IMG/VR virus record: IMGVR_UViG_2660238128_000002 | Strand: one strand, 5' to 3' | Source: a virus | Lineage: Duplodnaviria; Heunggongvirae; Uroviricota; Caudoviricetes | DNA: 14,285 bases | Part shown: positions 1 to 11,231 of the stretch, one piece after another | Position numbering within the stretch: the first letter of the stretch is position 1 | Layout: every line of letters starts with the position of its first letter | Made by a program: the position numbers and the translations under genes | The notes under the pieces: model-generated | Seen by the model: only the letters and a program-made list of their open reading frames with translations | The model's database searches: none | Told to the model about the DNA's origin: nothing

Positions 1-1083
1 ATGTCGTCTAATAATCGACTCCATTATCTTGATGGTATTCGTGGCTGGGCCGCAACTATTGTTGTCTTCGGGCACACCATGGGGGGCGTGATTGCAATTG
101 ACGCACCTAATTTTGTAAATCATCAATGGATGAGCTTTTTTACAAATGCTCATCTTGCTGTTTTGGTATTTTTTGTTTTATCAGGCTACGTCCTGAGCGT
201 TAGCCAAATCTACTCATCAAAACGTAATACTGCGGTATCCACCGTTGCAAGATTATTCAGATTGGCTCTTCCGATTCTGTTCGTAAGCCTTGTCGCATAT
301 ATCATGATGAGGTTAAACCTATTTTTCAATGTTCAAGCCGCTACTAATGACATATCGAAATCGTGGTTAGGGACATTTTTCAGGTTTGAGCCGTCACTAC
401 CTGGTGTATTTTCCTTTTCATTTTTCGATGTATTTTTCGCTTATGATACTCCGACATCATACAACTCTTCATTATGGACCATGCCTATAGAAATGGCTGG
501 GTCAATTCTAATTTATTCATACATAGCTATATTCAGAACTGAAAAATTCAACTGGATAATTTCTTCCATTTTAATAGTTTATTTCTATTTTTATAGCCCA
601 TTCATGTTCTGCTTTATGGTTGGGTATGTTCTGGCTGAACTGAAAAAAATTAACAACCTATACCTGAGTGGTAGAAATGAAATACCGTTGATATTTATTT
701 TCTTTGCCATGATCTATCTGGATACATACCATAGGCCGGTTGATGAGATTATTCAGGCGCTTGAGGCGGTAGTATTTGTTGTTGTAATATCTTACAGCAA
801 AACTTTATCATCGCTGTTCTCATCAAGAGCATCAAGATTTATGGGCAGGATTTCGTTTTCTCTATATCTAGTTCAGATACTGGTTATTTGCTCATGGTCT
901 TCGTACATGAAGATTTTACTATCAAACTCTGGTATTAATATAAATATTGCAGCCTCAATAAACCTCATATCATCCATGGCTTTGTGCATATTAACAGCAA
1001 GAGCCATGACTCCTATTGATGAATTTAGTGTTAAACACTCCAAAACCATTGCTTTTAAATTATTAAATTTATGCTCTAGGTAA
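1..1083 (+). CDS. Integral-membrane acyltransferase, acyltransferase-3 family (O-antigen O-acetyltransferase-like; lysogenic-conversion candidate)
   Basis: 360-aa ORF. N-terminal motif LDGIRGWAA...VVFGH matches the conserved N-terminal Arg/His region of acyltransferase-3 (Oac/OafA-type) enzymes. Protein is very hydrophobic, consistent with a multi-pass membrane protein. Gene is AT-rich relative to the tail genes and convergent to the tail fiber gene. Family assignment from memory of the motif, not a search. Confidence 0.7.
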   Translation: MSSNNRLHYLDGIRGWAATIVVFGHTMGGVIAIDAPNFVNHQWMSFFTNAHLAVLVFFVLSGYVLSVSQIYSSKRNTAVSTVARLFRLALPILFVSLVAYIMMRLNLFFNVQAATNDISKSWLGTFFRFEPSLPGVFSFSFFDVFFAYDTPTSYNSSLWTMPIEMAGSILIYSYIAIFRTEKFNWIISSILIVYFYFYSPFMFCFMVGYVLAELKKINNLYLSGRNEIPLIFIFFAMIYLDTYHRPVDEIIQALEAVVFVVVISYSKTLSSLFSSRASRFMGRISFSLYLVQILVICSWSSYMKILLSNSGININIAASINLISSMALCILTARAMTPIDEFSVKHSKTIAFKLLNLCSR

Positions 1084-1266
1084 CCAAGTCGTCAAAATGC
1101 ACTTTAAGCCCCATAAGGGGCTTTCCATTCGCTCAGGTCTATCGAATCCACCATCCTGGCATACTAAAATGTTAATCGATATGCCATCAATCACTTCTTT
1201 CTCTTCATCCATTTCTGCCACGTAAATTGCGGCAATCGTATGGACGCTTTTCCTCAATTGGTTCAT
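1069..1266 (-). CDS. Hypothetical small protein (65 aa), doubtful
   Basis: ORF from the six-frame track. It overlaps the 3' end of the acyltransferase gene and the putative terminator hairpin. No recognisable motif. May be spurious or a gene remnant. Confidence 0.15.
   Translation of the reverse strand: MNQLRKSVHTIAAIYVAEMDEEKEVIDGISINILVCQDGGFDRPERMESPLWGLKCILTTWLPRA
1107..1126 (+). terminator. Possible weak intrinsic terminator after the acyltransferase gene
   Basis: Hairpin AGCCCC-ATAA-GGGGCT (6-bp GC-rich stem) about 25 nt after the stop codon, followed by a short, imperfect T-tract (TTTCCATT). Confidence 0.3.
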
Positions 1267-1573
1267 TATTTTTCCGATATGTCACACCCCATATTTAGAT
1301 TTCAACGTTATTAGATCACTCGCAAACTGTTCCTTCAGCATTGGATATTTAGCTTGCTAATGCTGCATGATTGCTTCCATCAGTTAAAGATGCAGAACTA
1401 AAAGCTAACGTAAGAAATGAAACATTCTCTTGATATGCTTTACTTAAGCTTTCCAGCTCTTTTTTGTATAGATAAGCATTTATTGTTGATTCTGAAATAA
1501 TTTTATACTCCAGCTACTGACAGAATTTACTATTTGATGAATTGTGTTTATCTCCTAATGAGTGCTTAACATT

Positions 1574-1687
1574 TTAATTCATTACAATTTCCTTATATTC
1601 AAGGTATTTTTCAAGATCTTGCTCACAACGGAATATTGATACTAATTGACTTTCATCATTAGTTGAAAGTTGGATGTATAGATTCAT
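1574..1687 (-). CDS. Small ORF (37 aa) immediately downstream of the tail fiber gene; possible remnant or mini tail-fiber chaperone
   Basis: ATG at 1687 lies 10 nt after the tail fiber stop and is preceded by AAGGA at 6-nt spacing. Translation: MNLYIQLSTNDESQLVSIFRCEQDLEKYLEYKEIVMN. Not in the ORF track (below its length cutoff). Sits where a tail fiber assembly gene would be expected. Confidence 0.3.
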   Translation of the reverse strand: MNLYIQLSTNDESQLVSIFRCEQDLEKYLEYKEIVMN

Positions 1688-1696
1688 CAATAGTCC

Positions 1697-2851
1697 TTAA
1701 ATAGTATACCCACTTACACCAACAGTTAAGCTAGATACTGATGATGTTGTCCAAGTGAATGTATAATAAATTGTTTGAGGGTTCTGGATTAGAAGCTCAT
1801 AGTAAAAATCGACGCCAGTAGATCTACTTAAACCAGCATATGCCTGGAAATACCCTACATCCTGGGTATCAGAAGCAATTGAAGCAGCTGCATAACCATC
1901 ACCTTCCCCTGTGTTACAAAACACATAACCAGTACAGGTTGCTGCGTTTTTCGGGATCGCGTTTGTAAGAGAAATTGGAGTATACCCACCTGGGTTGCTA
2001 CTGGTTGACAGTACATCAACTCGCTGGGTAGCGAACTTTCTCCCTCTTTGGTACCCAATTTTTAACAGCGCCCCAGATGTTGTTCCCCACACCGATACCA
2101 AAGCGCTCGCCGTATATCCTGCTGGCATGTTTGCACCACCATATACCGTGGGAGCAATAATAGAAGTGACGTCCTGAGCAAGTAATGCCGAGGTATCTGT
2201 CGTCGGGTTATAAATCAGGTAAATTGCAACCCAACCACTGGCTGGCGCACTACCAGTATCCATGCCACCCGCCCCAGTCGTGGTGAGATTGATGGTTTTG
2301 TTGACCGAGCTTAAACGGTACTGCTTACCAGATAATGACTCACCAACAATGACTTGATCAGCAGTGAACGTTGCTGATGCCGACGCTATTGCCACGCTCA
2401 TTTTCTGGTTAACAGCCTGACCAACCACGCCGGTGAATGATTCTCGCATCTTGAGGTAATCACTTAGCGGCGACCACCCAGCTGAAGAAGTATTAGGGTC
2501 GTTTGTGTTGTTGTTGATAGTGCTGATATAAATCGTTGCGCCGTCATCACTGATGAGAACAGCTCCAAGAGGATACCCTCCAACCGCCGTTGAAAAATCT
2601 GAGTCAAAAGCATTAAGAGCGCCTGCGCTAGACCATCTGCAAAGGGAAGACAACTCATACAAGATTTGATTCATGTCCTGCCCTTTGGGAGGAAGGCCCC
2701 CGGCAGATTTCAAAATCATTGTTATTGGTGGGAATCCTAAATCGTAGGATGCTGTATTATCTCCAGCTGGAGTTGTCGGCAGAAGATCCTCTCTTTGACC
2801 ATTTACTCCAAAAGGTTTTGGTTGTTTTTTGGGTGAGTCAGAGCGATTCAT
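1697..2851 (-). CDS. Phage tail fiber protein
   Basis: 384-aa ORF, last gene of the baseplate operon, directly after the gp48-like gene (3-nt gap). Gly/Ser/Thr/Asn-rich with repetitive beta-rich character (e.g. TINLTTTGAGG, YTFTWTTSSVSSLTVGVSGYTI), typical of fiber proteins. Position matches Mu gene S. Confidence 0.75.
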   Translation of the reverse strand: MNRSDSPKKQPKPFGVNGQREDLLPTTPAGDNTASYDLGFPPITMILKSAGGLPPKGQDMNQILYELSSLCRWSSAGALNAFDSDFSTAVGGYPLGAVLISDDGATIYISTINNNTNDPNTSSAGWSPLSDYLKMRESFTGVVGQAVNQKMSVAIASASATFTADQVIVGESLSGKQYRLSSVNKTINLTTTGAGGMDTGSAPASGWVAIYLIYNPTTDTSALLAQDVTSIIAPTVYGGANMPAGYTASALVSVWGTTSGALLKIGYQRGRKFATQRVDVLSTSSNPGGYTPISLTNAIPKNAATCTGYVFCNTGEGDGYAAASIASDTQDVGYFQAYAGLSRSTGVDFYYELLIQNPQTIYYTFTWTTSSVSSLTVGVSGYTI

Positions 2852-2853
2852 AC

Positions 2854-3492
2854 TTAATTCCTATAAAATGTGCCATCATTAAACGGGTAGGCGTCAGATG
2901 AAAAACCGAAATAAGGACTAATAATTTTTCGAATATTTACCTGAACACCACTAGGAACTGGCATTACTTCATAATTTGTGAGAATAGATTCCTCGTATGG
3001 TGCAAGTTCAAACTCGAATGTTATTCCAATGGTCATATCTCGATAATTCACACAGTATGCCCTTCCTCTTTGAAAAAATAATATCTTTAAAAACTTGTTG
3101 ATTTCTGGAATCGTAGCAATACTTATGTTCGTAAACGCTTTGCAAAATATGAGTGTTCTGTAAGCCTCGTCACTCAATCTAACATTTGTTGTCTCCTGTG
3201 CTCCTCCAAAAAAAGGAGAGTTGTTGAACGGAGCGGGGTAATTTGGTTCTGCATTATCAGCTTCACTGAATCCGAAGGAATTGGTCTCTATAGGTGAGTT
3301 AATATAGCGACTTATCCCTACTATTTTCCCCCACATATCCAGGCCGAATGTATCACAGGTAGTCAAATCCCATACTTTTTTAATAAACTCATCAGTGAAA
3401 TCATCAAGGCTAATTGCCTGATTAAAGGTATCAATGATGGATAGTAATTTTTTGCTTGCAGAGTACTGGGTAAGAATTGTGTCCTCCCACAT
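2854..3492 (-). CDS. Baseplate/tail protein, Mu gp48-position (DUF2612-like)
   Basis: 212-aa ORF between the baseplate J-like gene and the tail fiber gene. Size and position match Mu gp48. Family call by synteny and recollection only. Confidence 0.6.
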   Translation of the reverse strand: MWEDTILTQYSASKKLLSIIDTFNQAISLDDFTDEFIKKVWDLTTCDTFGLDMWGKIVGISRYINSPIETNSFGFSEADNAEPNYPAPFNNSPFFGGAQETTNVRLSDEAYRTLIFCKAFTNISIATIPEINKFLKILFFQRGRAYCVNYRDMTIGITFEFELAPYEESILTNYEVMPVPSGVQVNIRKIISPYFGFSSDAYPFNDGTFYRN

Positions 3493-3502
3493 ACATTTCC
3501 CC

Positions 3503-4732
3503 CTACGATAATGTAACAGTGATATCTGATTCCTGAATGGTTGGAACCTGGTCTATGCCCATAGTCACAGCCGGTCCGTATAGTGAACCATCGAGAGAAA
3601 CTTCAAGAGACAAAATTCCAACTGTATCAGGAGATATTGAAATAACAGGGGCATAGTATTTACCAGCATTTATCGTCGAACCAATTCGTGCCTTTCCAAT
3701 ACCCTCATATCCTCCATTGAACACAGTGACAATCATTTCCTTTACTTGTTTAGTAATATCACTTGGGGGATTTAGTGAAGCATCGACATTTACCTTAAAG
3801 TAAACCCGCGTAGGTGATGCCTTTTGCCATTGCATTACATAAGATGGATATGGCGGCATGTAATTAACGTTATCGTAAACAGTGAACGTTGTATTACCAT
3901 TCATATTGGCCCCGGGGTTATAAGTATTGAATATTGACTCAGCAACATCCGTATCAGCCCCGCCATAAACACAAATATAAACAGAATGCGCAAGAATCGG
4001 GAAATTCGTTGTTCCTTTATTTACTGTTTCTGCAGTTCTGTTTGACCATACGTAAGCATCAAGCACACCATCAGTCGCAAGTAACGCGGCTAATGTAGAT
4101 GCGTCCTGATTTCGACTGTTTCTGGCAACTGATTGTCTCCGGCGAGTTTCAAAGGCGATCCGTGATTCAACATCAACACCAACGACTCCAGGGCTAGTAT
4201 TATTTACAGCATCCCACCCGGAAACGGCTCGATAAATCTGGTTCAGTGAACCTGCGGCACACGGAATCGGCCCGGTTGTTGTGTTGACAAACTGCACATC
4301 AACAGAGCCTGATGAGGGTATTACAGCATTATCAATTGACTGATATATATACCCGCTCGTATCCACAGCGGTACTCCCTGCTGGTATTGTTGTTCCAACC
4401 TGACCAATGCATGTTGCTGTAACAACTGTCCCCTGAGCAGCGATCCGCTCCATAAAGTAAATCCGACCAATCCCGTCCTGGAATCTGCCGGTTGAAAAGT
4501 CAGGGTTAATTTGATTAAACAAACAAAGAAGCTTGTCGTATTCCTGAGCGATAATTTCAGTGTCAGACTGGGCGATCTGCCCTTGCGGTGAACTCAGTGA
4601 CTGACTTGCGCCACCGCCAAGGGCCGTTGACATGTCTGTAAGTCTTCCCGCCAATACATCTGCTATATCGGGGACTGAAAGACCGTTTTCAGTGATGGTT
4701 ACATCAGGAACAGCCGTATTTAATGTCGTCAT
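3503..4732 (-). CDS. Baseplate J-like wedge protein (Mu gp47 / P2 gpJ-like)
   Basis: 409-aa ORF. Its stop overlaps the start of the upstream 119-aa gene by 4 nt. Size and position are typical of baseplate J family proteins in Mu-like tail modules. Confidence 0.65.
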   Translation of the reverse strand: MTTLNTAVPDVTITENGLSVPDIADVLAGRLTDMSTALGGGASQSLSSPQGQIAQSDTEIIAQEYDKLLCLFNQINPDFSTGRFQDGIGRIYFMERIAAQGTVVTATCIGQVGTTIPAGSTAVDTSGYIYQSIDNAVIPSSGSVDVQFVNTTTGPIPCAAGSLNQIYRAVSGWDAVNNTSPGVVGVDVESRIAFETRRRQSVARNSRNQDASTLAALLATDGVLDAYVWSNRTAETVNKGTTNFPILAHSVYICVYGGADTDVAESIFNTYNPGANMNGNTTFTVYDNVNYMPPYPSYVMQWQKASPTRVYFKVNVDASLNPPSDITKQVKEMIVTVFNGGYEGIGKARIGSTINAGKYYAPVISISPDTVGILSLEVSLDGSLYGPAVTMGIDQVPTIQESDITVTLS

Positions 4733-5088
4733 AAGGTGGCCTGTGCAATATTACCATTGATATCTGTAACGCGGATTGTCCCGCGAGTTGTGCGTGTATT
4801 CTTGTCAAAGAAAACTGACGCCAGAGCATCCTCAACAACGGGTAATTTGAGTGCTTCAGCCTGCATTTTCTGAGCAATAAAACCAGGAGATGGTCGCCTG
4901 CCAAGAACTTCTGCCTTCCATGGGATCCCAAGTGTATTGTCGTAATAACACTCTCCTGAAAACACCAGGCATGCACTGGCGACATCCTGAGCAACAGAAT
5001 ATGATTCTTCTGCGATCGCCAGATTGCCATTTCCGTCAAGCGTCAAGTCCCACGTAGAAGTGTCCAGCTGCATAGTTCTGTATGTCAT
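4729..5088 (-). CDS. Small baseplate assembly protein (Mu gp46 / gpW-like position)
   Basis: 119-aa ORF translationally coupled (4-nt overlaps) to both neighbours. It is the small protein that conventionally precedes baseplate J. Confidence 0.55.
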   Translation of the reverse strand: MTYRTMQLDTSTWDLTLDGNGNLAIAEESYSVAQDVASACLVFSGECYYDNTLGIPWKAEVLGRRPSPGFIAQKMQAEALKLPVVEDALASVFFDKNTRTTRGTIRVTDINGNIAQATL

Positions 5089-5777
5089 GTCGGTTTATCC
5101 GTTGCATTGGAATTTATTGTTGACCCACCACTTTGTATTCCTGAAACAGAATGTTTGTGATTGTTATAGTTGTCCCTTAAATTTTTAACAGTAGATGACT
5201 GTGAGTCTGCGTTATCCTGAATATCGCCACTAACTTTAAGTAAAGGCGTATTCATGTTGACTCCATCAGGAGCATCAATATTTAACGATGAGCATTTGAT
5301 ATTTAGTGGGTTAGGCGTGGTTATATTTATTGCACCGTCAGCGAATTCAATGAATTGAGTAGGTGAAATGTTTAATACCCCACCAAGATAAATCGCATCC
5401 GATTTACTGTGTCGTCTTTTGCTTCCAGGTACTGATTCTTTACGATTTTTTCTTACCAGTGATGTGTCTTTGTCGCATACCGCAATCAGACCAATATCAC
5501 CTGCCACAGGGTCCATAATTACAGCGCTGTTTCCTCTCTGCAACCGCCATACGGGAAGATCATATAAAACCGAGTTGGAAATCATTTTTCCTGTACGGTC
5601 TGTTCTGGTTAGTAAAGGAAGAACATCAACAACTAAATCTGGTGCTTCCCCTCTGACTTCCTGAACTTTCGCTAACTCAATGAAGAAATATCCAGACATC
5701 AGCATCTCAAAAATATATTCCTGAGATTGAGCCTCACTTACCTGAGCAGGCGTTGGAGTAAATAGTTGCTTATCCAT
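5085..5777 (-). CDS. Baseplate spike / assembly protein V-like (Mu gp45 position)
   Basis: The ORF track gives 5085..5870 (261 aa), but its first ~31 codons overlap the upstream gene. The internal ATG at 5777 (MDKQLF...) gives an 8-nt ATGGATAA start/stop overlap typical of coupled phage genes. Start choice is uncertain (alternatives at 5846 and 5870). The C-terminal region is Gly/Ser/Asn-rich. Confidence 0.6.
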   Translation of the reverse strand: MDKQLFTPTPAQVSEAQSQEYIFEMLMSGYFFIELAKVQEVRGEAPDLVVDVLPLLTRTDRTGKMISNSVLYDLPVWRLQRGNSAVIMDPVAGDIGLIAVCDKDTSLVRKNRKESVPGSKRRHSKSDAIYLGGVLNISPTQFIEFADGAINITTPNPLNIKCSSLNIDAPDGVNMNTPLLKVSGDIQDNADSQSSTVKNLRDNYNNHKHSVSGIQSGGSTINSNATDKPT

Positions 5778-6946
5778 TATTCTGTTGCGCCTCTGCTCTT
5801 TGTTCCGCTGTTCTGGCGGCAATACATATTGAGTGCCATGAACCATTTGGCATCCATGATGATAATTCATGCCGAACGGAGGTTAACTTATACCTTCCGC
5901 TTGCATGTGGTAGTTCTGTTTTGATATCCACATATCTTCCAATGCAAAGGAGAGATGAATATTGCGTCTGAAACATCAGCCCCCCATTTGAAAATACAGG
6001 ATATCCAACAAGTCCGTATTCTCTGGATATAAACGGAATTACATCATCTCTGTTTTTTTCTGAAGGCCAGAACTCTACTTTTGCAGGTGGCGTAGCTGAC
6101 ATTGCCAGTCCATAATCTGAACAGACTCTATAAAGTTGCTCAAAAACACTTCCTTCAAAATGCGGACTTCCTGATGTTGTCATCCCTTTTACATTATTAA
6201 ACACAGCTTCATAACCTGCACTTGCACAAATGGATGAGATGACATCTTCAACACTTTGCGCCCCCTGTGCTGTAAACGGACTTGCTGGCATGTTCTGCAA
6301 ATCAACATTAGAAGAAGCTGTTATCATCAGGCTGCTTTCAGGAGCAGAATTCATGTTTGCTATTGATGAAAGCATCGTGCCAGAGAAAACAAGAGAATCA
6401 TCGGCAAATACTTCAACATTTAGCTTCTGCCCTTCTCCAATAATACCATCAGCCTTCCCTGATATATCAGCAAGCCTTTCAATTCCTAACCCGTAAAGAG
6501 ATATATCAGCCTGAGCGCCTCCCCGACCGGTAACAAAGTTCAGGGATACTGTTGACTTAACATTTCTGATGGAGATTTTATTGTTCCCATTTTTATCAAA
6601 TGCTGATGATTCATTCGTGAAGTCAAACCGAAGACTGTGATTTTTATACAAGCTCGTTTTCCTCGATGTAGTACAGCAAGTAACGGCTACCCAAGCCTTC
6701 CCATTGCGGATCCGATTCCCCATCATTATCAATGAAAATAAGGTCTCCCTTAAATCCAAGGTAGGAATATCTTACCATCTTATTCCCATACAGACATGGA
6801 ACGCCCTGCATAATTGGGACTTCATTAACAGTTAAATCCATGTACATAAAACTCTGTCGCTGAACAAGTTTTATATTACATTGCTGACCAGACAGACTTA
6901 CCGAAATGGACTGAGATTTGCTGGGAAGAACAGATACTGTAATCAT
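5770..6946 (-). pseudogene. Baseplate hub-like gene (Mu gpP/gp44 position) split into two overlapping reading frames
   Basis: A 100-aa ORF (6644..6946) and a 329-aa ORF (5770..6759) overlap by 116 nt in different frames. The downstream frame is +1 relative to the upstream one and begins at a TTG. Together they would encode about 390 aa, the size expected for a gpP-like protein. Both frames look protein-like across the overlap. Interpreted as a frameshift mutation, sequencing error or unusual +1 recoding. Confidence 0.5.
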
Positions 6947-7758
6947 GTACTCGCCTTAACTATATTTTTTGCAATATCTGCCGCTTTTTTTGTTGCGCTG
7001 TTTGTGACTTCGAGTATTGGTTTGGATACCGTATCAAGAGCACTCTGGAATTCAGTCTTGATTGTGTCGGAGATTTTTCCAGTGATTTCGCCAACAGATG
7101 ACTTCAGTGATGACCATGATTTACTTAGCTCATCGACAGTAGATTCCCTGGCTCCGCCATTGGTTATTTGCGGATCAACTCCTACACCTCCCTGTGACTT
7201 ATTGTTATCCGTTGGCTTCTGTTCTGACTGAGATCCAGAGAGGATAACCTCCATTTGCTGAATGACCTCCTGAAAATCAAGATAAACCGTCAGAAGAGTC
7301 ACCCCTTTTTGAGAGTTAACTTCGTAATAGTGGTCAACAAGGTCGAAACTCTCCAGAGTTTCCTTTGGCGTTTCAATATCGTATGTTTTTGCAGAGGACA
7401 GCATCATTTTGATTGTGTTCAGCGTGCTGTTCTGGCTTGTGAATGTGAGATCGAAAATATTCGGGATGTTGCCGGAAAAACCAGTAAGACCATTTACGAT
7501 GATTGCGCATCTTACCCTGGCGGGTTCTTTAACTTTGTTGATGGACTGGTATTTCCCTTTCTCCACCGGAGCGTTTGTTATTTGCGCCCTGCCACTTGGC
7601 TGCACGGATGCCATACCACTGAACTCAAGAGCAACCTCGCCAGTTTCCCTGTCACGAATCACATACTGAGGATGCAGAACGCTGTCGATGATCGAAAGCG
7701 GAGAGCCACCACCGATAGCATTGAATATGTCTGCTGTGTTTAAATCGATTATGCCCAT
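6943..7758 (-). CDS. Tail/baseplate protein in the Mu gpN position (function unassigned)
   Basis: 271-aa ORF, first gene after the immI-like cassette. Good RBS (GGAGAG, then 3 nt, then ATG). Stop overlaps the next gene's start. Assignment by position only. Confidence 0.5.
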   Translation of the reverse strand: MGIIDLNTADIFNAIGGGSPLSIIDSVLHPQYVIRDRETGEVALEFSGMASVQPSGRAQITNAPVEKGKYQSINKVKEPARVRCAIIVNGLTGFSGNIPNIFDLTFTSQNSTLNTIKMMLSSAKTYDIETPKETLESFDLVDHYYEVNSQKGVTLLTVYLDFQEVIQQMEVILSGSQSEQKPTDNNKSQGGVGVDPQITNGGARESTVDELSKSWSSLKSSVGEITGKISDTIKTEFQSALDTVSKPILEVTNSATKKAADIAKNIVKAST

Positions 7759-7770
7759 CTACTCTCCATT

Positions 7771-7795
7771 AAACAAAAACCCAGCCGAAGCTGGG
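7771..7795 (-). terminator. Intrinsic terminator downstream of the Bro-N antirepressor gene
   Basis: On the minus strand: CCCAGC-TTCG-GCTGGG hairpin (6-bp GC-rich stem, tetraloop) followed immediately by TTTTTGTTT. Lies between the antirepressor stop (7815) and the next gene's start (7758). Confidence 0.6.
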
Positions 7796-7814
7796 TCGTT
7801 GCGTTGGTTATCTG

Positions 7815-8693
7815 TCAGTAGTTATGTACTGAAGGAGGTAATTCTTTATTCTTAAGTCTCATCCATGCGGAAAGATTCGTTGGTCCGTCTGGCTCATTGA
7901 TATCAACATCTCGTGTGTGATTGATTAAAACGTCTCTCGCTATATCGATAATACGGGAGAACTCATAACCGCAGTCATGACATCTGCCGGAATAGTTCGA
8001 TTGAATTTGTTTTAATGCCGGATACAGTTCGCGGAATAATGCCTGTGAACGGTTGGCATAATCCCATAACCATACAAGGCTGTTTGCTTCTTTTGCAGAA
8101 ATCTCGTTGGTTTTCTTCTCTTGTTTGCCGATGAACTCACCTTCAAGCACTACCCTGTGGATGTACTCTACGGCCAGCGGGATTTGTTCAATTGAAAGTT
8201 CATCAATGCTGTCAATACCAAAACGCTGATGAACCATATTGTATGCATCGTCATAGCGAAGTCCTTTCTTTCCTACCAGCATGTTTACTGCATCGCGTAG
8301 CGGTGTTCTTTCCTCAACAGTGGTTTTCTTTCCTTTTACATACTCGCCATGTTTGCGAATTGAAGGCAGAACTTCTGCTGTTACCCACTTGCGGAATTTG
8401 TGTGGGACTGAACCTTTATTGACTGCATCGCGGCAGCGCAGAACCAATGTATACATACCTGATTCGCTCACAATGCTTAGATTCTGCTCACCACCAAGGG
8501 TGTAACTTAAAGTTACTCCCTTTTCATCGTCATCAAGTGCAGTAAGCGCCTTGCGTGAGTTAGTCAAAGCTAAAGCATCACAAACATCTTTAGCTACAAA
8601 CCACGGCTCGCCGCACTTGTTAATGACGCGAATTTCACTGTCGCCAAATTTGAAGATGGTGAAATCGTTTTGTGCCTTTGCTATACTTTTCAT
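7815..8693 (-). CDS. Bro-N domain antirepressor (Ant-like)
   Basis: 292-aa ORF. The N-terminus carries the Bro-N signature ([10 protein letters not shown]...[16 protein letters not shown]...[19 protein letters not shown]). The C-terminal half is a separate region of unassigned fold. It is the second gene of an operon headed by a small ribbon-helix-helix gene, as in P22 arc-ant. Confidence 0.75.
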
Positions 8694-8768
8694 GTCAATA
8701 TTTCCCGATCAGATTTGTTGATGTAGAAGCCTCGCCAGTTCCCGCTGTCGGGGCTTCGTTATTTTTAG
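8679..8768 (+). ncRNA. Candidate Sar-like cis-antisense small RNA covering the antirepressor ribosome-binding site
   Basis: Plus-strand extended -10 element TGcTATACT (8679-8687) inside the first codons of the antirepressor gene. About 40 nt further on the plus strand is a hairpin GAAGCCTCG...CGGGGCTTC (8726-8757, 9 bp including one G-U pair) followed by GTTATTTTT. The predicted ~75-nt transcript is antisense to the antirepressor RBS and the intercistronic region. The terminator is oriented for the plus strand only. Confidence 0.4.
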
Positions 8769-8926
8769 AGAGCATTCCGCATTTTCTCCCGGTACTTCAA
8801 CCACCAAGCAAGTCCCTGAACCAACACTGAGTTTTCTGACATCCCCTCTTCCTTGGCGATGCGTTTCACCTCCTCCTTAAAACGGTACGGATACCGAAGA
8901 GTTGTCTTCACTTCATTCTTTTCCAT
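8765..8926 (-). CDS. Arc-like ribbon-helix-helix transcriptional repressor (53 aa)
   Basis: ORF absent from the supplied track (below its cutoff). ATG at 8926 is preceded by GGAGTG with an in-frame stop immediately upstream. Translation: MEKNEVKTTLRYPYRFKEEVKRIAKEEGMSENSVLVQGLAWWLKYREKMRNAL. Shows the ribbon-helix-helix pattern (beta-strand TTLRYP, helix A, turn, helix B). Same length as P22 Arc and directly upstream of the antirepressor. Confidence 0.65.
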   Translation of the reverse strand: MEKNEVKTTLRYPYRFKEEVKRIAKEEGMSENSVLVQGLAWWLKYREKMRNAL

Positions 8927-9027
8927 TGATCACTCCTTTTACGTAATGGCATTATGCCTTGAAAGCAATATGCTATCATTGAATATAAATAGCAATATGC
9001 CATCATTGTTTTTTTTGAGGTGATGTT
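8927..9027. promoter_or_regulatory. Divergent promoter/operator region between the Arc-like and Mnt-like genes
   Basis: 100-bp AT-rich intergenic region. Two 18-bp direct repeats, AGCAATATGCTATCATTG (8964-8981) and AGCAATATGCCATCATTG (8991-9008), 17/18 identical, 27 bp apart. Perfect palindrome GGCAT-T-ATGCC at 8948-8958. Plus-strand -35-like TTGAAA (8959-8964) with a TATAAA -10-like element (8984-8989). Minus-strand CATAAT -10-like element within the palindrome. Confidence 0.5.
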
Positions 9028-9348
9028 ATGGCTGAAAAGCAGGTTAAAGATTACGAAAAGTTTGTTGTGCGTTTCCCTGACGGGATGAGGGACGCGATTG
9101 CGGAGAGAGCCAAACGAAACGGGCGCTCTATGAACTCAGAGATTGTGCAGATACTGGAAGATGCCTTGAATGCAGAAAATACTCTTGGGGAAATAGCAGA
9201 CAAAATCAACAGCGTCTCGGTTCCGTTAAATGTTGATGCGCTAGTTCAACTTCAAGCCCAAGTGATCGCCATGCAAAAAGAAATACAGGAAAAGTTCAGA
9301 GAGCAGAACGAAAAGTTGAGAGAACTGCTAAACAAAAAACCCACCTGA
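9028..9348 (+). CDS. Mnt-like (Arc/Mnt family) ribbon-helix-helix repressor with C-terminal coiled coil
   Basis: 106-aa ORF with RBS GAGG. N-terminal FVVRFPDGMRDAIAERAKRNGRSMNSEIVQILEDAL closely resembles the Mnt/Arc DNA-binding motif as I recall it (...NGRSMNSE...DAL). The C-terminal half is heptad-like and charged (oligomerisation). Divergently transcribed from the Arc-like/antirepressor operon. Confidence 0.75.
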   Translation: MAEKQVKDYEKFVVRFPDGMRDAIAERAKRNGRSMNSEIVQILEDALNAENTLGEIADKINSVSVPLNVDALVQLQAQVIAMQKEIQEKFREQNEKLRELLNKKPT

Positions 9349-9365
9349 CGGTGGGTTTTCATTTT
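9332..9365. terminator. Bidirectional intrinsic terminator
   Basis: Hairpin AACCCACC-TGAC-GGTGGGTT (8-bp stem), flanked by an A-run upstream and a T-run downstream, so it is followed by U-tracts on either strand. The Mnt-like stop codon TGA lies in the loop. The hairpin is about 50 nt downstream of the tape measure stop on the minus strand. Confidence 0.7.
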
Positions 9366-9416
9366 TACCGTCCGACTTCAGTCAACAGGCACAAACAGAG
9401 AAAACGTTACAGGTGA

Positions 9417-11231
9417 CTAAGGCATTGCACTGGAAAATGCCGCGTTTGTTGACGCCCGGCTAACTTGCTGATTGACGCTTCTGGTAAGAGCATCAACTGT
9501 TGTCGGGTTACTGTTAACAACTACCGTGCCAATAGTTGTACTGCTGCTACGGCTGTTGTCAATTTTTGATGTTGTCTGGCTTGGTGTTGAGGCGATGCGT
9601 TGCTGCTGCTGATAGTAAGCCAGCGTCTCGTTTTCTTTTGCATTAAGAGCGGCGCGAATCTTTGGTACATATTCTCGCGTTTCTTTCGGCAGGGTGTTCC
9701 AGTATTTGGATGATGGTGAATCAAACCCGGTACTGGATATATATTTTAACTTTTTGTCTACATTACCCATCCCCCAGTTGTAAGCCATCAGCGCATGGTT
9801 AACATTGCCTTTATAGTGCTTTAGCAAATCCCTCATGAACCTTTCAGCAGCAGCGCGAGATTTCACCTCATCAAGGCGCTCATCAATCCCATCCCCGACC
9901 TTTAACCCGTACGCTATGGCAGTATCCTTCATGAACTGATACGGACCAACAGCACCTTTCGGACTATAAAGTTTTTTACCACCACTCGATTCCACCTCAC
10001 GAATGGCGTCAAGGAGAGAATCCATGCTTACTGGCTTTACTCCGTCAGGGAGAGGGATATCTGGCTGAATGTTATTGCCATAAATCTCATCTCCTCTACG
10101 CCCAAAATCAGTATCAAAACCCATGCTGCGCATGGTATCTCCAAGTTCACGTTTAGAGTAATCAAACGATCCTTTAGCTGCCCCCTCAATGTTTTCCCTG
10201 TCATTGTAGAGATACAAACCATATGCTATTAACCCTGCTAACCATGGAGGAAGGGCGCCGCCTGTAAGTTTGCTTCCTACATATGCTGCTGCCAATAGTT
10301 TCAGAGCCTCTTCCGCACCACCAACTGCCTTTGTGAATTGCTTCGTCATATTCCCGGCGTCATTGAAAAAGCCAATGATGTCGCCATGATGTTTCTCAAT
10401 CCAGGAACCAAAAGCCTTCATCCCGTCAATAACGTCTGGAGCGAATGCCATGGCTAAATTTTGCTTTAATCGGGAAAACTCTGAATCAAGTTGCCCAAGG
10501 GTGGCAGCAACCTTCTCCTGCTCTTTTACCTGCTGTGCTGTAATACGGGATTTCTTTGTTTCTGAATCGACAAGCTGCTTAAGTTCCCCTGATTTTATTT
10601 TAGCGGCATCTGTCGGATCGAACCCTGCGGCAGCCATCACCTGCATCAGGTTTTCTTGAGAATGAGTCTTGCCATAGCGAGAAAACTCAGCAAGAGCCTT
10701 GTTTGGGTCGCCGAGCTTATTGATATCTAATCCGGTACGAGCTCCAAGAATCAGCAAATTTTGGGCAGCGCCAGTAAGCCCTCCCATAACAGTCGGATCG
10801 GCAATATTTGCCAAAGCCATTCTGGCATTCCCAGAAGATGAAATGAACGAGTCACCGTTAAGACCAGCCTGGCGAAATCCCCGCTGAACACCAAACATCT
10901 TATTAACATCAGAGCCGAAAAACTTGGCCTGTTGGCTGGCCCTCACAATTTCGTTGGCAGTAGATGTAAAAAGTTGCTTGACTCCATACAACCCTGCGCC
11001 AATTCCCAAAAATCCAGCGGCTGCTGTTGTCACGTTGCGGAAAGCTGAAACAGCGGTTTTACCGAACCTCTCCGTTTCCTGCCGCTGTTTTTCAAGTTCC
11101 TTTAGCCTTTCCTTCTCAGCCCTAGAAAGATCTTTGTTTAATTTACTAACTTCATCTTTTACTTTCCGTTTTCCATTCAGGAATTCATCGGCCTTAATTG
11201 TGACCTTGTAGGCCAACTCATTGATAATCAT
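9417..11231 (-). CDS. Tail tape measure protein with C-terminal soluble lytic transglycosylase (SLT) domain
   Basis: 604-aa ORF after the chaperone pair. N-terminal coiled-coil/charged region (EKERLKELEKQRQETERFGK) and Gly/Ala-rich hydrophobic segments. The C-terminal part has the SLT-type motif (EVESSGG...GAVGPYQFMKDTA...AYNWGMGNV, with the catalytic Glu in the E-S context). Confidence 0.75.
   Translation of the reverse strand: MIINELAYKVTIKADEFLNGKRKVKDEVSKLNKDLSRAEKERLKELEKQRQETERFGKTAVSAFRNVTTAAAGFLGIGAGLYGVKQLFTSTANEIVRASQQAKFFGSDVNKMFGVQRGFRQAGLNGDSFISSSGNARMALANIADPTVMGGLTGAAQNLLILGARTGLDINKLGDPNKALAEFSRYGKTHSQENLMQVMAAAGFDPTDAAKIKSGELKQLVDSETKKSRITAQQVKEQEKVAATLGQLDSEFSRLKQNLAMAFAPDVIDGMKAFGSWIEKHHGDIIGFFNDAGNMTKQFTKAVGGAEEALKLLAAAYVGSKLTGGALPPWLAGLIAYGLYLYNDRENIEGAAKGSFDYSKRELGDTMRSMGFDTDFGRRGDEIYGNNIQPDIPLPDGVKPVSMDSLLDAIREVESSGGKKLYSPKGAVGPYQFMKDTAIAYGLKVGDGIDERLDEVKSRAAAERFMRDLLKHYKGNVNHALMAYNWGMGNVDKKLKYISSTGFDSPSSKYWNTLPKETREYVPKIRAALNAKENETLAYYQQQQRIASTPSQTTSKIDNSRSSSTTIGTVVVNSNPTTVDALTRSVNQQVSRASTNAAFSSAMP

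Follow-up and report, generated by a model that had tools for sequence, protein, structure and literature searches.

The window, a stretch of 14,285 nt from a virus of the class Caudoviricetes (IMG/VR record IMGVR_UViG_2660238128_000002), carries between two tail genes what, judged from its sequence, is an accessory element: an immI-type cassette with the P22-type arrangement of mnt and arc-ant and with a Bro-N antirepressor. The cassette extends from position 7778 to position 9359, and a terminator scan places an intrinsic terminator at either end. According to the ORF coordinates, the mnt-like gene on the plus strand diverges from arc-ant on the minus strand over a spacer of 101 bp. A preliminary description, made from the letters of the window, had proposed three genes in the architecture of the immI region of phage P22, with mnt divergent from arc-ant. 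All three ORFs were found where it had placed them (ant, 292 aa; arc-like gene, 53 aa; mnt-like gene, 106 aa), and their topology equals that of the annotated P22 record. The terminators, which it had located at 7771-7795 and 9332-9365, lie nearby in the scan, at 7797-7778 (minus strand) and 9336-9359 (plus strand). The features of the locus are as follows:

6943-7758, minus strand: Dit-like first gene of the baseplate cluster (271 aa; PHROG 1830), downstream flank
7778-7797, minus strand: intrinsic terminator after ant (terminator scan), with 19 nt between it and the tail gene downstream
7815-8693, minus strand: ant antirepressor gene (ORF, 292 aa; Pfam, PHROG and P22 Ant homology)
7818-8330, minus strand: part of ant homologous to P22 Ant (residues 122-292)
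7902-8120, minus strand: P22_AR_C of ant (Pfam PF10548, residues 192-264)
8364-8636, minus strand: Bro-N domain of ant (Pfam PF02498, residues 20-110)
8659-8687, plus strand: Psar-like promoter, GTGAAA-17-TGcTATACT with extended -10 (promoter scan), antisense within ant codons 3-12
8694-8766, plus strand: putative sar-type antisense RNA (Rfam RF00262 match, fold, covariation, P22 geometry)
8765-8926, minus strand: arc-like ribbon-helix-helix gene (ORF, 53 aa), first gene of the ant operon
8927-9027, no strand: control region between mnt and arc with candidate Arc/Mnt operators (repeats; binding inferred)
8949-8958, 8965-8974 and 8992-9001, no strand: three copies of GCAWTATGCY, each within a 15-bp imperfect dyad
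8951-8979, minus strand: Pant-like sigma-70 promoter candidate, ATGATA-17-CATAAT (promoter scan, 9/12 matches), reading into arc-ant
8964-8981 and 8991-9008, no strand: 18-nt direct repeats (repeat search)
9028-9348, plus strand: mnt-like maintenance repressor gene (ORF, 106 aa), N-terminal ribbon-helix-helix of the Arc/Mnt family
9336-9359, both strands: bidirectional intrinsic terminator (terminator scan and folds), overlapping the mnt end
9417-11231, minus strand: tape-measure-type tail protein with C-terminal SLT transglycosylase domain (Pfam SLT, 604 aa), upstream flank

Genes and terminators of the cassette

Ant consists of a swapped N-terminal domain and a conserved P22-type C-terminal part. 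The protein matches PHROG 245 'anti-repressor Ant' with an E-value of 4e-108 and belongs to a cluster of 1319 members at 99% identity, which is named antirepressor Ant. In agreement with the Bro-N type antirepressor proposed for this gene, the Pfam Bro-N model exceeds its gathering cut-off (E 7e-20, 71.9 bits vs 25.6), as does P22_AR_C (E 5e-28, 97.4 bits vs 22.4). Residues 122-292 are 83% identical to residues 130-300 of P22 Ant over 171 aa, whereas the N-termini of the two proteins are unrelated. The Pfam search revealed no P22_AR_N domain (PF10547) in the Ant of the window, which carries Bro-N in its place; P22_AR_N is seen in P22 Ant and in the E423 relative. Since the N-terminal domain is Bro-N and not P22_AR_N, the target range of Ant may differ from that of P22 Ant. 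The C-terminal half had been described as having no assigned fold and as a possible specificity domain; however, its family is assigned (PF10548), and it is the conserved P22 Ant part, whereas the N-terminal domain is the one that gets swapped. The recombination joints at the Ant domain borders could direct domain-swap tests of antirepressor specificity. A CHDC sequence in the C-terminal half was rejected as a metal-binding or specificity motif, as P22 Ant has CYDY at this place. No solved relative of Ant was found by PDB sequence search, and the AF2 model, which was built from a 16-sequence alignment, is of low confidence (pLDDT 61, pTM 0.34) and gave nothing significant in a Foldseek search against the PDB. 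Within this low-confidence model, residues 200-260 are predicted to be helical (pLDDT 75-87). The terminator after ant folds with -17.7 kcal/mol (z -4.5) and is followed by UUUUUGUUU.

The 53-aa protein encoded upstream of ant matches PHROG 582 'Arc-like repressor' (E 1.6e-10) and aligns with P22 Arc in BLASTP (38% over 29 aa, E 3e-5) and in hhalign (89% probability). When its profile was searched against the PDB, Arc ranked first (E 1e-4); the Pfam Arc model, however, scores only 17.5 bits, below the cut-off of 20.4. The ribbon-helix-helix fold that had been suggested for the protein is consistent with its AF2 model (pLDDT 80), which has a strand-helix-helix topology with helices at residues 14-27 and 31-52. 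The structures closest to the model in superposition are Arc, CopG and AmrZ, with an rmsd of 1-1.9 A at non-significant Foldseek E-values of about 1; as the lack of significance is attributed to the shortness of the protein, only the ranking and the rmsd were used. The RefSeq entry for this gene reads 'hypothetical protein', and we propose the name Arc-like.

The family of the mnt-like protein is clearer: residues 8-54 match Pfam Arc (PF03869) at 69.9 bits (cut-off 20.4), 43 aa are 47% identical to residues 2-44 of P22 Mnt, and PDB searches return Mnt (1mnt, E 3e-6) and AmrZ (E 6e-9). The profile searches thereby bear out the proposed families for Ant and the 106-aa protein, and PHROG 582 supports that of the 53-aa protein, with its sub-cut-off Pfam score. 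The 106-aa protein matches PHROG 1287 over its full length (E 3e-50), including the C-terminal half; this half shows no similarity to the tetramerisation domain of P22 Mnt, and the BLASTP and PDB alignments end at about residue 51-54. Weak ParD-like, HicB and FitA-like matches were also obtained. Some Mnt homologues bear the PHROG label 'partition protein ATPase', which is uninformative on function because P22 mnt carries the identical product line in its RefSeq record. The terminator at the end of mnt folds on the plus strand with -15.1 kcal/mol (z -3.8), followed by CAUUUUU. It is regarded as bidirectional, since the minus strand, facing the tape-measure gene, likewise folds (-19.4 kcal/mol, z -4.4) and has a U-run, UUUUUUGUUU.

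Control region and antisense RNA

The three GCAWTATGCY sites in the spacer between mnt and arc are candidate Arc/Mnt operators, as suggested by their repetition: 0.17 copies are expected, and none of 200 shuffles gets to three. The repeats are conserved among relatives and can still be recognised in GF-2; this comparison was made by alignment, with a 1-nt indel among the sequences. One operator repeat of the window contains a substitution, T8973, and the same repeat is perfect in relatives. The consensus promoter scan gave three hits where 3.0 are expected, which is a chance count, and Pant and Psar were therefore accepted solely on position and conservation. Taken alone, the Pant-like match is a chance-level consensus; its placement relative to the operators and to arc, however, follows P22 and makes it a candidate promoter, which overlaps both arc-proximal GCAWTATGCY copies. 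The consensus scan yielded no convincing Pmnt; the top candidate is TTGAAA-19-TATAAA at 8959-8989.

The preliminary description had overlooked a fourth part of the cassette, the sar-type antisense RNA. Its sequence is the complement of the stretch between arc and ant and of the ant ribosome-binding site. The RNA folds into two hairpins (MFE -26.4 kcal/mol, z -4.9): the one at the 5' end has an anti-SD loop, and the other is a terminator hairpin of 14 bp, after which comes a U-run. It aligns with Rfam RF00262 over the full length of the model (1-68/68; 28.5 bits, E 0.007), but misses the gathering score of 43 bits, and comparative structure was used for this reason. Both hairpins are kept in 14 sequence types drawn from more than 100 viral contigs; across these types the 5' stem covaries fully, and 6 of 13 terminator pairs are compensated. 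MAFFT/RNAalifold on 22 sar sequences had recovered the terminator helix only, with misaligned 5' hairpins, and the conserved 5' hairpin emerged upon folding every type individually. Merely 3 of the 12 related sar sequence types pass the RF00262 gathering threshold, which is thus narrow relative to the structural family; at this score, the Rfam model detects a minority of the sar variants sharing the two-hairpin structure. The geometry of the RNA equals that of the annotated P22 sar, and the offset from Psar to the ant ATG is the same as for the annotated P22 Psar. Moreover, the Psar -10 region and the ant start TTGCTATACTnTTCATG are the same as in P22 and are present in at least 120 IMG/VR contigs. 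Taken together, these features point to a putative sar antisense RNA that covers the ant ribosome-binding site and is read from a promoter within ant.

Tail-operon setting of the cassette

The position of the cassette between the tape-measure gene and the first baseplate gene, as originally proposed, agrees with the identity of both neighbours, the SLT-domain protein at 9417-11231 and the Dit-like protein at 6943-7758. The former matches PHROG 2013 'lytic tail protein' as well as tape-measure PHROGs, and its gene is preceded by chaperone-sized ORFs. The latter scores 22 bits against Pfam Dit_like, slightly under the cut-off, and its gene is syntenic with GF-2 ORF-24, Edno5 gp24 and PA-1 ORF072. 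The tail operon had been called Mu-like; however, its families are not of the Mu type but include a DUF3383 sheath, an E217_Gp32 tube, a Pam3_gp18 plug, DUF2612, Baseplate_J and the SLT tape-measure protein. The nearest phages are GF-2, Edno5 and Vibrio IKEMa6-1, followed by phages of Pantoea, Klebsiella, Burkholderia and Pseudomonas.

A comparison with relatives, which had been suggested as a check, shows that the flanking genes can adjoin without the cassette. In Pantoea phage PA-1, the cassette is absent and the tape-measure-type gene and the next tail gene are 1 nt apart, and E. coli SC407 has no immI within this slot; other related E. coli prophages carry variant cassettes there. Breakpoints of the slot lie at 7796 and at about 9376-9428. 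Homology on the baseplate side stops at window position 7796 in 7 of 7 relatives, including one without immI, and the terminator at 7778-7797 marks the right-hand end of the variable slot, a conserved joint that is duplicated in L001. The borders of the cassette are the same points at which homology to other phages breaks off, which argues against boundaries set by chance. The cassette thus has the properties of a moron: some of the syntenic relatives lack it, it brings along candidate promoter(s) of its own, and it is terminated at both ends. Among 5426 complete E. coli genomes, 1097 contain parts of it, whereas only 12 of the 5426 have the whole window combination (coverage of at least 80%). 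The tape-measure/baseplate junction of GF-2-like E. coli prophages therefore appears as a hot spot in which antirepressor variants gather along with other passengers.

Regulation of the lambdoid kind is seen in a close relative, which encodes a LexA-family CI together with cro, cII, N and a Q antiterminator; for the prophage in the window, the genes for the primary repressor and Q fall beyond the window ends. It is doubtful that the cassette is insulated from the late operon, as had been claimed, since the Q-family antiterminator of this relative suggests that late transcripts should read through the cassette, as in P22. Nor is the location in a tail operon unusual, as had been supposed: P22 immI itself sits in the late operon, and GF-2 and Edno5 use the same slot.

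Interpretation and comparison with known immunity regions

The best explanation, to which we give a probability of about 0.85, is that the cassette is a P22-type immI ('ant moron') that serves as an accessory regulatory cassette in the late operon of an E. coli prophage which is GF-2-like, has a contractile tail and is regulated in the lambdoid manner. Established directly were the genes present with their order and orientation, homology at the level of domains and sequences, the terminators, sar structure and promoter conservation, and the accessory, mosaic character; the steps of the mechanism are inferred by homology with P22. In the lysogen, the Mnt-like ribbon-helix-helix repressor, expressed from its own promoter, would occupy the GCAWTATGCY operators, thereby keeping Pant off and the antirepressor absent. 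If Pant fires, for instance upon infection or when Mnt is missing, arc and ant would be co-transcribed, and the Arc-like protein would subsequently turn Pant off again. The sar-type RNA, starting one base past the ant ATG, would pair with the ant ribosome-binding site and block the translation of Ant, a block that would extend to read-through late transcripts. Ant may inactivate a CI/C2-type primary repressor by binding to it, either that of its own prophage or that of a co-resident lambdoid prophage, resulting in induction or a break of immunity. Late transcription, presumably Q-antiterminated, would have to pass both terminators before arriving at the baseplate genes, in the way that late transcription of P22 runs through immI to gene 9.

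A possible, though tentative, variant of this reading is that Ant mainly speeds or coordinates induction or acts in trans on other prophages (cf. Gifsy-type antirepressors) rather than serving immunity. In Stx phage Phi24B, whose Ant has a P22-like C-terminus like that of the window, deletion of ant had no effect on superinfection immunity, and a role in efficient induction was proposed (PMC3064807); over parts of its length, the cassette shares about 89% identity with regions of Stx phages. Lambda CI, moreover, is one of the heterologous repressors on which P22 Ant is known to act (PMC3064807), which fits a role in trans. However, this variant differs in biological role and not in mechanism, and the full Mnt/Arc/sar control layer, the basis of bipartite immunity in P22, is intact in the window.

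It is unlikely that the cassette is an inert relic of a defective prophage, with genes kept intact through recent descent but non-functional. E. coli strain 720632 contains an identical left part of this prophage (window 1-7032, 100%) that is cut off by IS600, the slot of some relatives holds a P63C pseudogene or an interrupted ant gene, and the T8973 substitution also counts for a relic; however, none of the three ORFs is shortened, the two terminators, Psar and the hairpins of sar are all preserved, and the presence of a 99%-identical Ant on 740 contigs speaks against decay. Improbable as well is a joint reading in which immI doubles as a regulated gate splitting the myovirus tail operon and the Bro-N domain, not the P22-type C-terminal part, sets the repressor range; if true, module exchange at the joints at Ant aa ~121 and ~182 would re-target antirepressors among co-resident prophages. 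Very doubtful is the idea that the cassette is chiefly a transcriptional gate, in which the terminators and the Mnt/Arc-controlled Pant set baseplate against sheath, tube and tape-measure transcription. The bidirectional terminator after the tape-measure gene and the other ahead of the baseplate genes would suit a gate, but PA-1 and SC407 make the same tail type without immI, and the authors of published work deem any such role possibly accidental; the first of these arguments is tempered by SC407, which retains the 7778-7797 terminator despite the absence of immI. Ribbon-helix-helix proteins often serve as antitoxins, and the weak matches and the partition label of the Mnt-like family could hint at a type II toxin-antitoxin or partition-like pair of an antitoxin and a downstream effector; this is highly improbable and was rejected, as the downstream gene matches antirepressor families only and no toxin family, its product is highly similar to P22 Ant, and sar and the P22 geometry are present.

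Under the preferred immI reading, the cassette is an ordinary immunity I region of a kind already described, which the preliminary description had identified correctly. We advise annotating it as immI (mnt, arc, sar, ant); the wider consequence is otherwise small. P22 immI (NC_002371, 14212-16035) shares the gene order and strands, the length of Arc (53 aa in both), a sar antisense RNA across the arc-ant spacer, a Psar in ant at equal offset and a terminator after ant. It lies between gene 16/sieA and gene 9, which encodes the tailspike, and its arc-ant genes run in the direction of the late genes, as they do in the window. The two regions differ in the mnt-arc spacer (90 bp in P22, 101 bp in the window), in the N-terminal domain of Ant (P22_AR_N vs Bro-N) and in Mnt (83 vs 106 aa, with unrelated C-terminal halves). 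Arc is about 38% identical between them, the sar of the window is of a different sequence type (28.5 bits to Rfam), and its operator-like sequences have no resemblance to P22 Oarc and Omnt. P22 immI is flanked by ejection protein and tailspike genes, whereas the window has tape-measure and baseplate genes of a contractile tail, and the P22 passengers sieA, hkcC and orf59a are absent from its cassette.

In P22-like phages, immI has been described as the 'ant moron' of the late operon, immediately ahead of the gene for the tailspike (Villafane et al. 2008, PMC2629481). The cassette of the window is likewise a variable, independently expressed, non-structural insert in one fixed slot of a morphogenetic operon, with high turnover among close relatives, which range from having none to carrying variants with extra genes. 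The 'ant moron', however, was described in podoviruses, whereas the slot of the window lies in a myovirus tail cluster. Stx and lambdoid phages of E. coli (2851, YYZ-2008, 1717; Kapi1) show 87-97% nucleotide identity over parts of the cassette; the similarity of Kapi1 spans 7775-8757, and the Stx phages match pieces of 7775-9355. These ant regions lie in siphovirus or podovirus genomes with module combinations other than that of the window. Synteny of the tail module extends to two Edwardsiella phages of the genus Gofduovirus, GF-2 and Edno5, whose sheath is 73-75% identical to that of the window; for the GF-2 cassette, the nucleotide identity across arc, mnt and the first part of ant is only about 74%. 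The Edwardsiella phages differ from the E. coli prophage in host, in additional small ORFs beside mnt and, in Edno5, in a shorter Ant (201 vs 292 aa). Their mnt, arc and ant are annotated in the corresponding slot, with the transglycosylase/tape-measure gene on one side and the first baseplate gene on the other, as in the window, and the cassette of Edno5 was named ImmI in its paper (PMC6372524).

Genes and ends of the cassette

The feature is a real P22-type mnt/arc-ant module and was correctly named in the preliminary description, whose three ORFs were all confirmed by ORF calls. The two hairpins at its ends fold far better than shuffled sequence, in agreement with the proposed bracketing by terminators. 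The hairpin at 9336-9359 also qualifies as a good terminator when read on the minus strand and is thus bidirectional.

Features of the cassette and its flanks
6943-7758: Dit-like flank, first gene of the baseplate cluster (Pfam, PHROG)
7797-7778 (-): terminator-like hairpin after ant (terminator scan and fold)
7815-8693 (-): ant, 292-aa ORF with Bro-N and P22_AR_C
8765-8926 (-): arc-like gene, 53-aa ORF
9028-9348 (+): mnt-like gene, 106-aa ORF matching Arc (PF03869)
9336-9359 (+): terminator-like hairpin at the mnt end (terminator scan and fold)
9417-11231: tape-measure-type flank, 604 aa, with SLT domain (Pfam, PHROG)

Judged by its sequence, the 106-aa protein is clearly a ribbon-helix-helix (RHH) protein of the Arc/Mnt family: it matches the Pfam family Arc with 69.9 bits, finds AmrZ (E 6e-9) and Mnt (E 3e-6) in the PDB and shares 47% identity with residues 2-44 of P22 Mnt, while similarity of its C-terminal half to that of P22 Mnt was not found. 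The mnt genes of P22 (NC_002371, 14519-14770) and of the Edwardsiella phage Edno5 (13826-14104) carry the RefSeq product name "partition protein ATPase", an annotation error propagated from a PHROG label, which could mislead automated readers.

The RHH assignment of the 53-aa protein fell below the Pfam cut-off for Arc (17.5 versus 20.4 bits) and is otherwise supported by several independent lines, all in favour of an Arc-like protein. It belongs to PHROG 582, "Arc-like repressor" (E 1.6e-10), and matches P22 Arc in BLASTP (E 3e-5); a profile built from 10 database relatives has Arc structures as its top PDB matches (E 1e-4) and aligns to P22 Arc with an hhalign probability of 89%. In the AF2 model (pLDDT 80), the N-terminus is extended and residues 14-27 and 31-52 are helical; the model superposes best on Arc, CopG, AmrZ and VapB (rmsd 1-1.9 Å), with Foldseek E-values that are non-significant because the chain is so short.

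The antirepressor Ant is of the proposed Bro-N type (Pfam E 7e-20) and also contains P22_AR_C (E 5e-28). Its residues 122-292 are 83% identical to residues 130-300 of P22 Ant, which consists of P22_AR_N and P22_AR_C, whereas its first 121 residues are unrelated to P22 Ant; the protein is therefore a Bro-N/P22-Ant-C chimera. This architecture is common: a cluster of 99%-identical proteins, named "antirepressor Ant", comprises 1319 member sequences from 740 contigs. Variants with other terminal modules include KilA-N with P22_AR_C and Bro-N with a different C-terminus. A sequence search of the PDB detected no solved structure, the model is too poor for fold assignment, and Foldseek found nothing significant there. 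Hence, although no fold could be assigned to the C-terminal part, in line with the earlier description, it belongs to a known family and has a well-known homologue. CHDC was rejected as a conserved motif, as the aligned P22 residues are CYDY. A recurrent homology breakpoint lies inside ant at about 8147/8148 (residue ~182), and three related loci (L002, L006 and L007) share with the window only the part downstream of ~8147. Since the P22 homology starts at residue ~122 (window ~8330), Ant seems, from these sequence comparisons, to consist of three modules that can be exchanged.

Control region and sar antisense RNA

The mnt-arc spacer of 101 bp contains three copies of GCAWTATGCY, where 0.17 would be expected in the whole window; three copies were reached in none of 200 shuffles. 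Each copy lies inside a 15-bp imperfect dyad. The spacer also contains two 18-nt direct repeats, which are perfect in close relatives and recognizable in the Edwardsiella phage GF-2. These are candidate operators for the two repressors, with any assignment of one repressor to one site inferred. At 8973, the window has a T in the first 18-nt operator-like repeat; all close relatives have a C, which makes both repeats identical there, and this change could affect the binding of a repressor. On the minus strand, a Pant-like promoter (ATGATA-17-CATAAT, 8979-8951), which by its consensus match alone would not stand out from chance, overlaps the two arc-proximal GCAWTATGCY sites. A consensus promoter scan revealed no convincing candidate for Pmnt.

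A component missed in the preliminary description is the antisense RNA sar. A full-length, sub-threshold match to the Rfam family RF00262 (28.5 bits, E 0.007) was found at 8695-8761 on the plus strand, antisense to the arc-ant spacer. A promoter scan placed a Psar-like extended -10 promoter (GTGAAA-17-TGcTATACT, 8659-8687, plus strand) within the first ant codons, reading in the same direction. The geometry is identical to that of the annotated P22 record, in which sar spans 15021-15090, Psar lies inside ant at 15097-15125 and ant starts at 15091; the -10 region and ant start codon are also identical in sequence. Using the conserved 17-mer of -10 region and ant start as an anchor, at least 120 IMG/VR contigs were retrieved. 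Among the matches listed, the sar-like element is present in 111 extracted segments (61 unique sequences), and 14 distinct sequence types, including that of the window, all form the same two hairpins: a 5' hairpin with a stem of 6-7 bp and an anti-Shine-Dalgarno UUCC/CUCC in the loop, and a terminator stem of ~14 bp. The 5' stem of the window type (GUCAAUA/UGUUGAU) differs wholly in sequence from that of P22 (GUUGGU/ACUGAC), yet both pair, and the terminator stem carries compensatory changes in 6 of 13 pairs. The window's sar folds with -26.4 kcal/mol (z = -4.9). Scoring of sar types from the window (8694-8766) and from the compared loci L004, L010, L017, L037, L045, L050, L090, L108 and L110 revealed that RF00262 at gathering score finds only 3 of 12 types with common promoter, position and two-hairpin structure; the family thus appears broader than the curated Rfam threshold captures.

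Host prophage and variable slot

The window is part of an E. coli prophage, whose relatives are 93-96% identical over ~80% of the window; positions 1-7032 are 100% identical to a remnant adjoining ybhB/bio in strain 720632. The tail had been described as Mu-like; its gene families (DUF3383, E217_Gp32, Pam3_gp18, DUF2612 and Baseplate_J) contradict this, and its sheath shares 73-75% identity with the sheaths of Edno5 and GF-2, both Edwardsiella myoviruses. The gene for the baseplate plug (Pam3_gp18 family, 6644-6946) shares ~80 nt with the next tail gene (6644-6759 region), as it also does in the annotations of all relatives; either the overlap is conserved at an unusual length or the start is mis-called throughout. 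A close relative has a lambdoid early region containing a LexA-family CI, cro, cII, N, nin genes, a Q-family antiterminator and a lambda-type holin; cI/cro/cII homologues have also been reported for Edno5 (PMC6372524). A 360-aa Acyl_transf_3 family gene (1-1083, plus strand), located at the end of the prophage that adjoins ybhB in strain 720632, is transcribed in the direction opposite to the tail-fibre genes and probably encodes an O-antigen or surface-polysaccharide acetyltransferase, a lysogenic-conversion moron.

The cassette is an accessory insert. Pantoea phage PA-1, which is syntenic, has a spacing of 1 nt between its tape-measure-type gene and the tail gene that follows, the cassette-free adjacency envisaged in the preliminary description. 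Among the E. coli relatives inspected, the slot of SC407 is empty apart from a P63C pseudogene and a hypothetical gene; those of others carry additional passengers, namely P63C, a Panacea-domain pair, and 242-aa and 73-aa ORFs. Some relatives have the Ant N-terminal domain swapped to P22_AR_N, others a disrupted ant. In E423 (7366-8233), a Panacea-domain protein and an adjacent hypothetical gene, likely a toxin-antitoxin-type passenger, lie between mnt and the tape-measure gene, a place occupied by P63C-domain genes in other relatives. In STEC299 (NZ_CP022279, 7277-8891, corresponding to window slot 7798-9375), the Mnt-like protein is replaced by a 213-aa HTH_3 and Peptidase_S24 protein, whose gene diverges from the genes of a 57-aa RHH-like product and of a 208-aa Bro-N/P22_AR_C Ant. 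The replacing protein is LexA/CI-like and potentially RecA-cleavable, an arrangement that would couple the antirepressor directly to SOS.

Homology breaks at the ant terminator (7796) and just past the tape-measure stop (9376-9428). The terminator hairpin (7778-7797) is conserved as the slot's right-hand joint across the seven relatives compared, one of which lacks immI. FDAARGOS_1288 has it twice (8183-8204 and 9054-9075), on either side of two extra ORFs; the hairpin has the appearance of a joint at which modules are exchanged by recombination. Of 5426 complete E. coli genomes, 1097 contain pieces of the cassette and 12 the whole combination; with the P22-like phage Kapi1 and with Stx phages, parts of it share 87-97% identity.

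Proposed working and comparison with known phages

By homology with P22, as described in the papers cited here and the classical work that they cite, Mnt would be made in the lysogen and keep Pant off. Once Pant fires, Arc would feed back on it, and sar would pair with the ant ribosome-binding site, thereby blocking ant translation. Ant would bind and inactivate a repressor of the CI/C2 type, acting in cis or in trans. For the Ant of Phi24B, which has a P22-like C-terminus, superinfection immunity was unaffected; the authors instead suggested that it contributes to efficient induction (PMC3064807).

The suggested insulation of the cassette from the late operon is not supported: Villafane et al., who named the corresponding P22-like variable slot "ant moron" and described ten types in sixteen genomes, noted read-through of the slot by late transcription (PMC2629481), and the close relative encodes a Q-family antiterminator. 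Q-modified late transcription would be expected to cross both terminators into the baseplate genes. Nor is the position unusual, as had been assumed. In P22, immI lies inside the late operon between genes 16 (with sieA) and 9, with a terminator before gene 9 and arc-ant in the orientation of the late operon; GF-2 and Edno5 have annotated mnt/arc/ant in exactly the window's slot, explicitly called ImmI in the Edno5 paper (PMC6372524). Thus, the cassette is a well-known module in a canonical kind of location and widespread in enterobacterial genomes; for the nearest cultured phages it has been annotated and discussed before.
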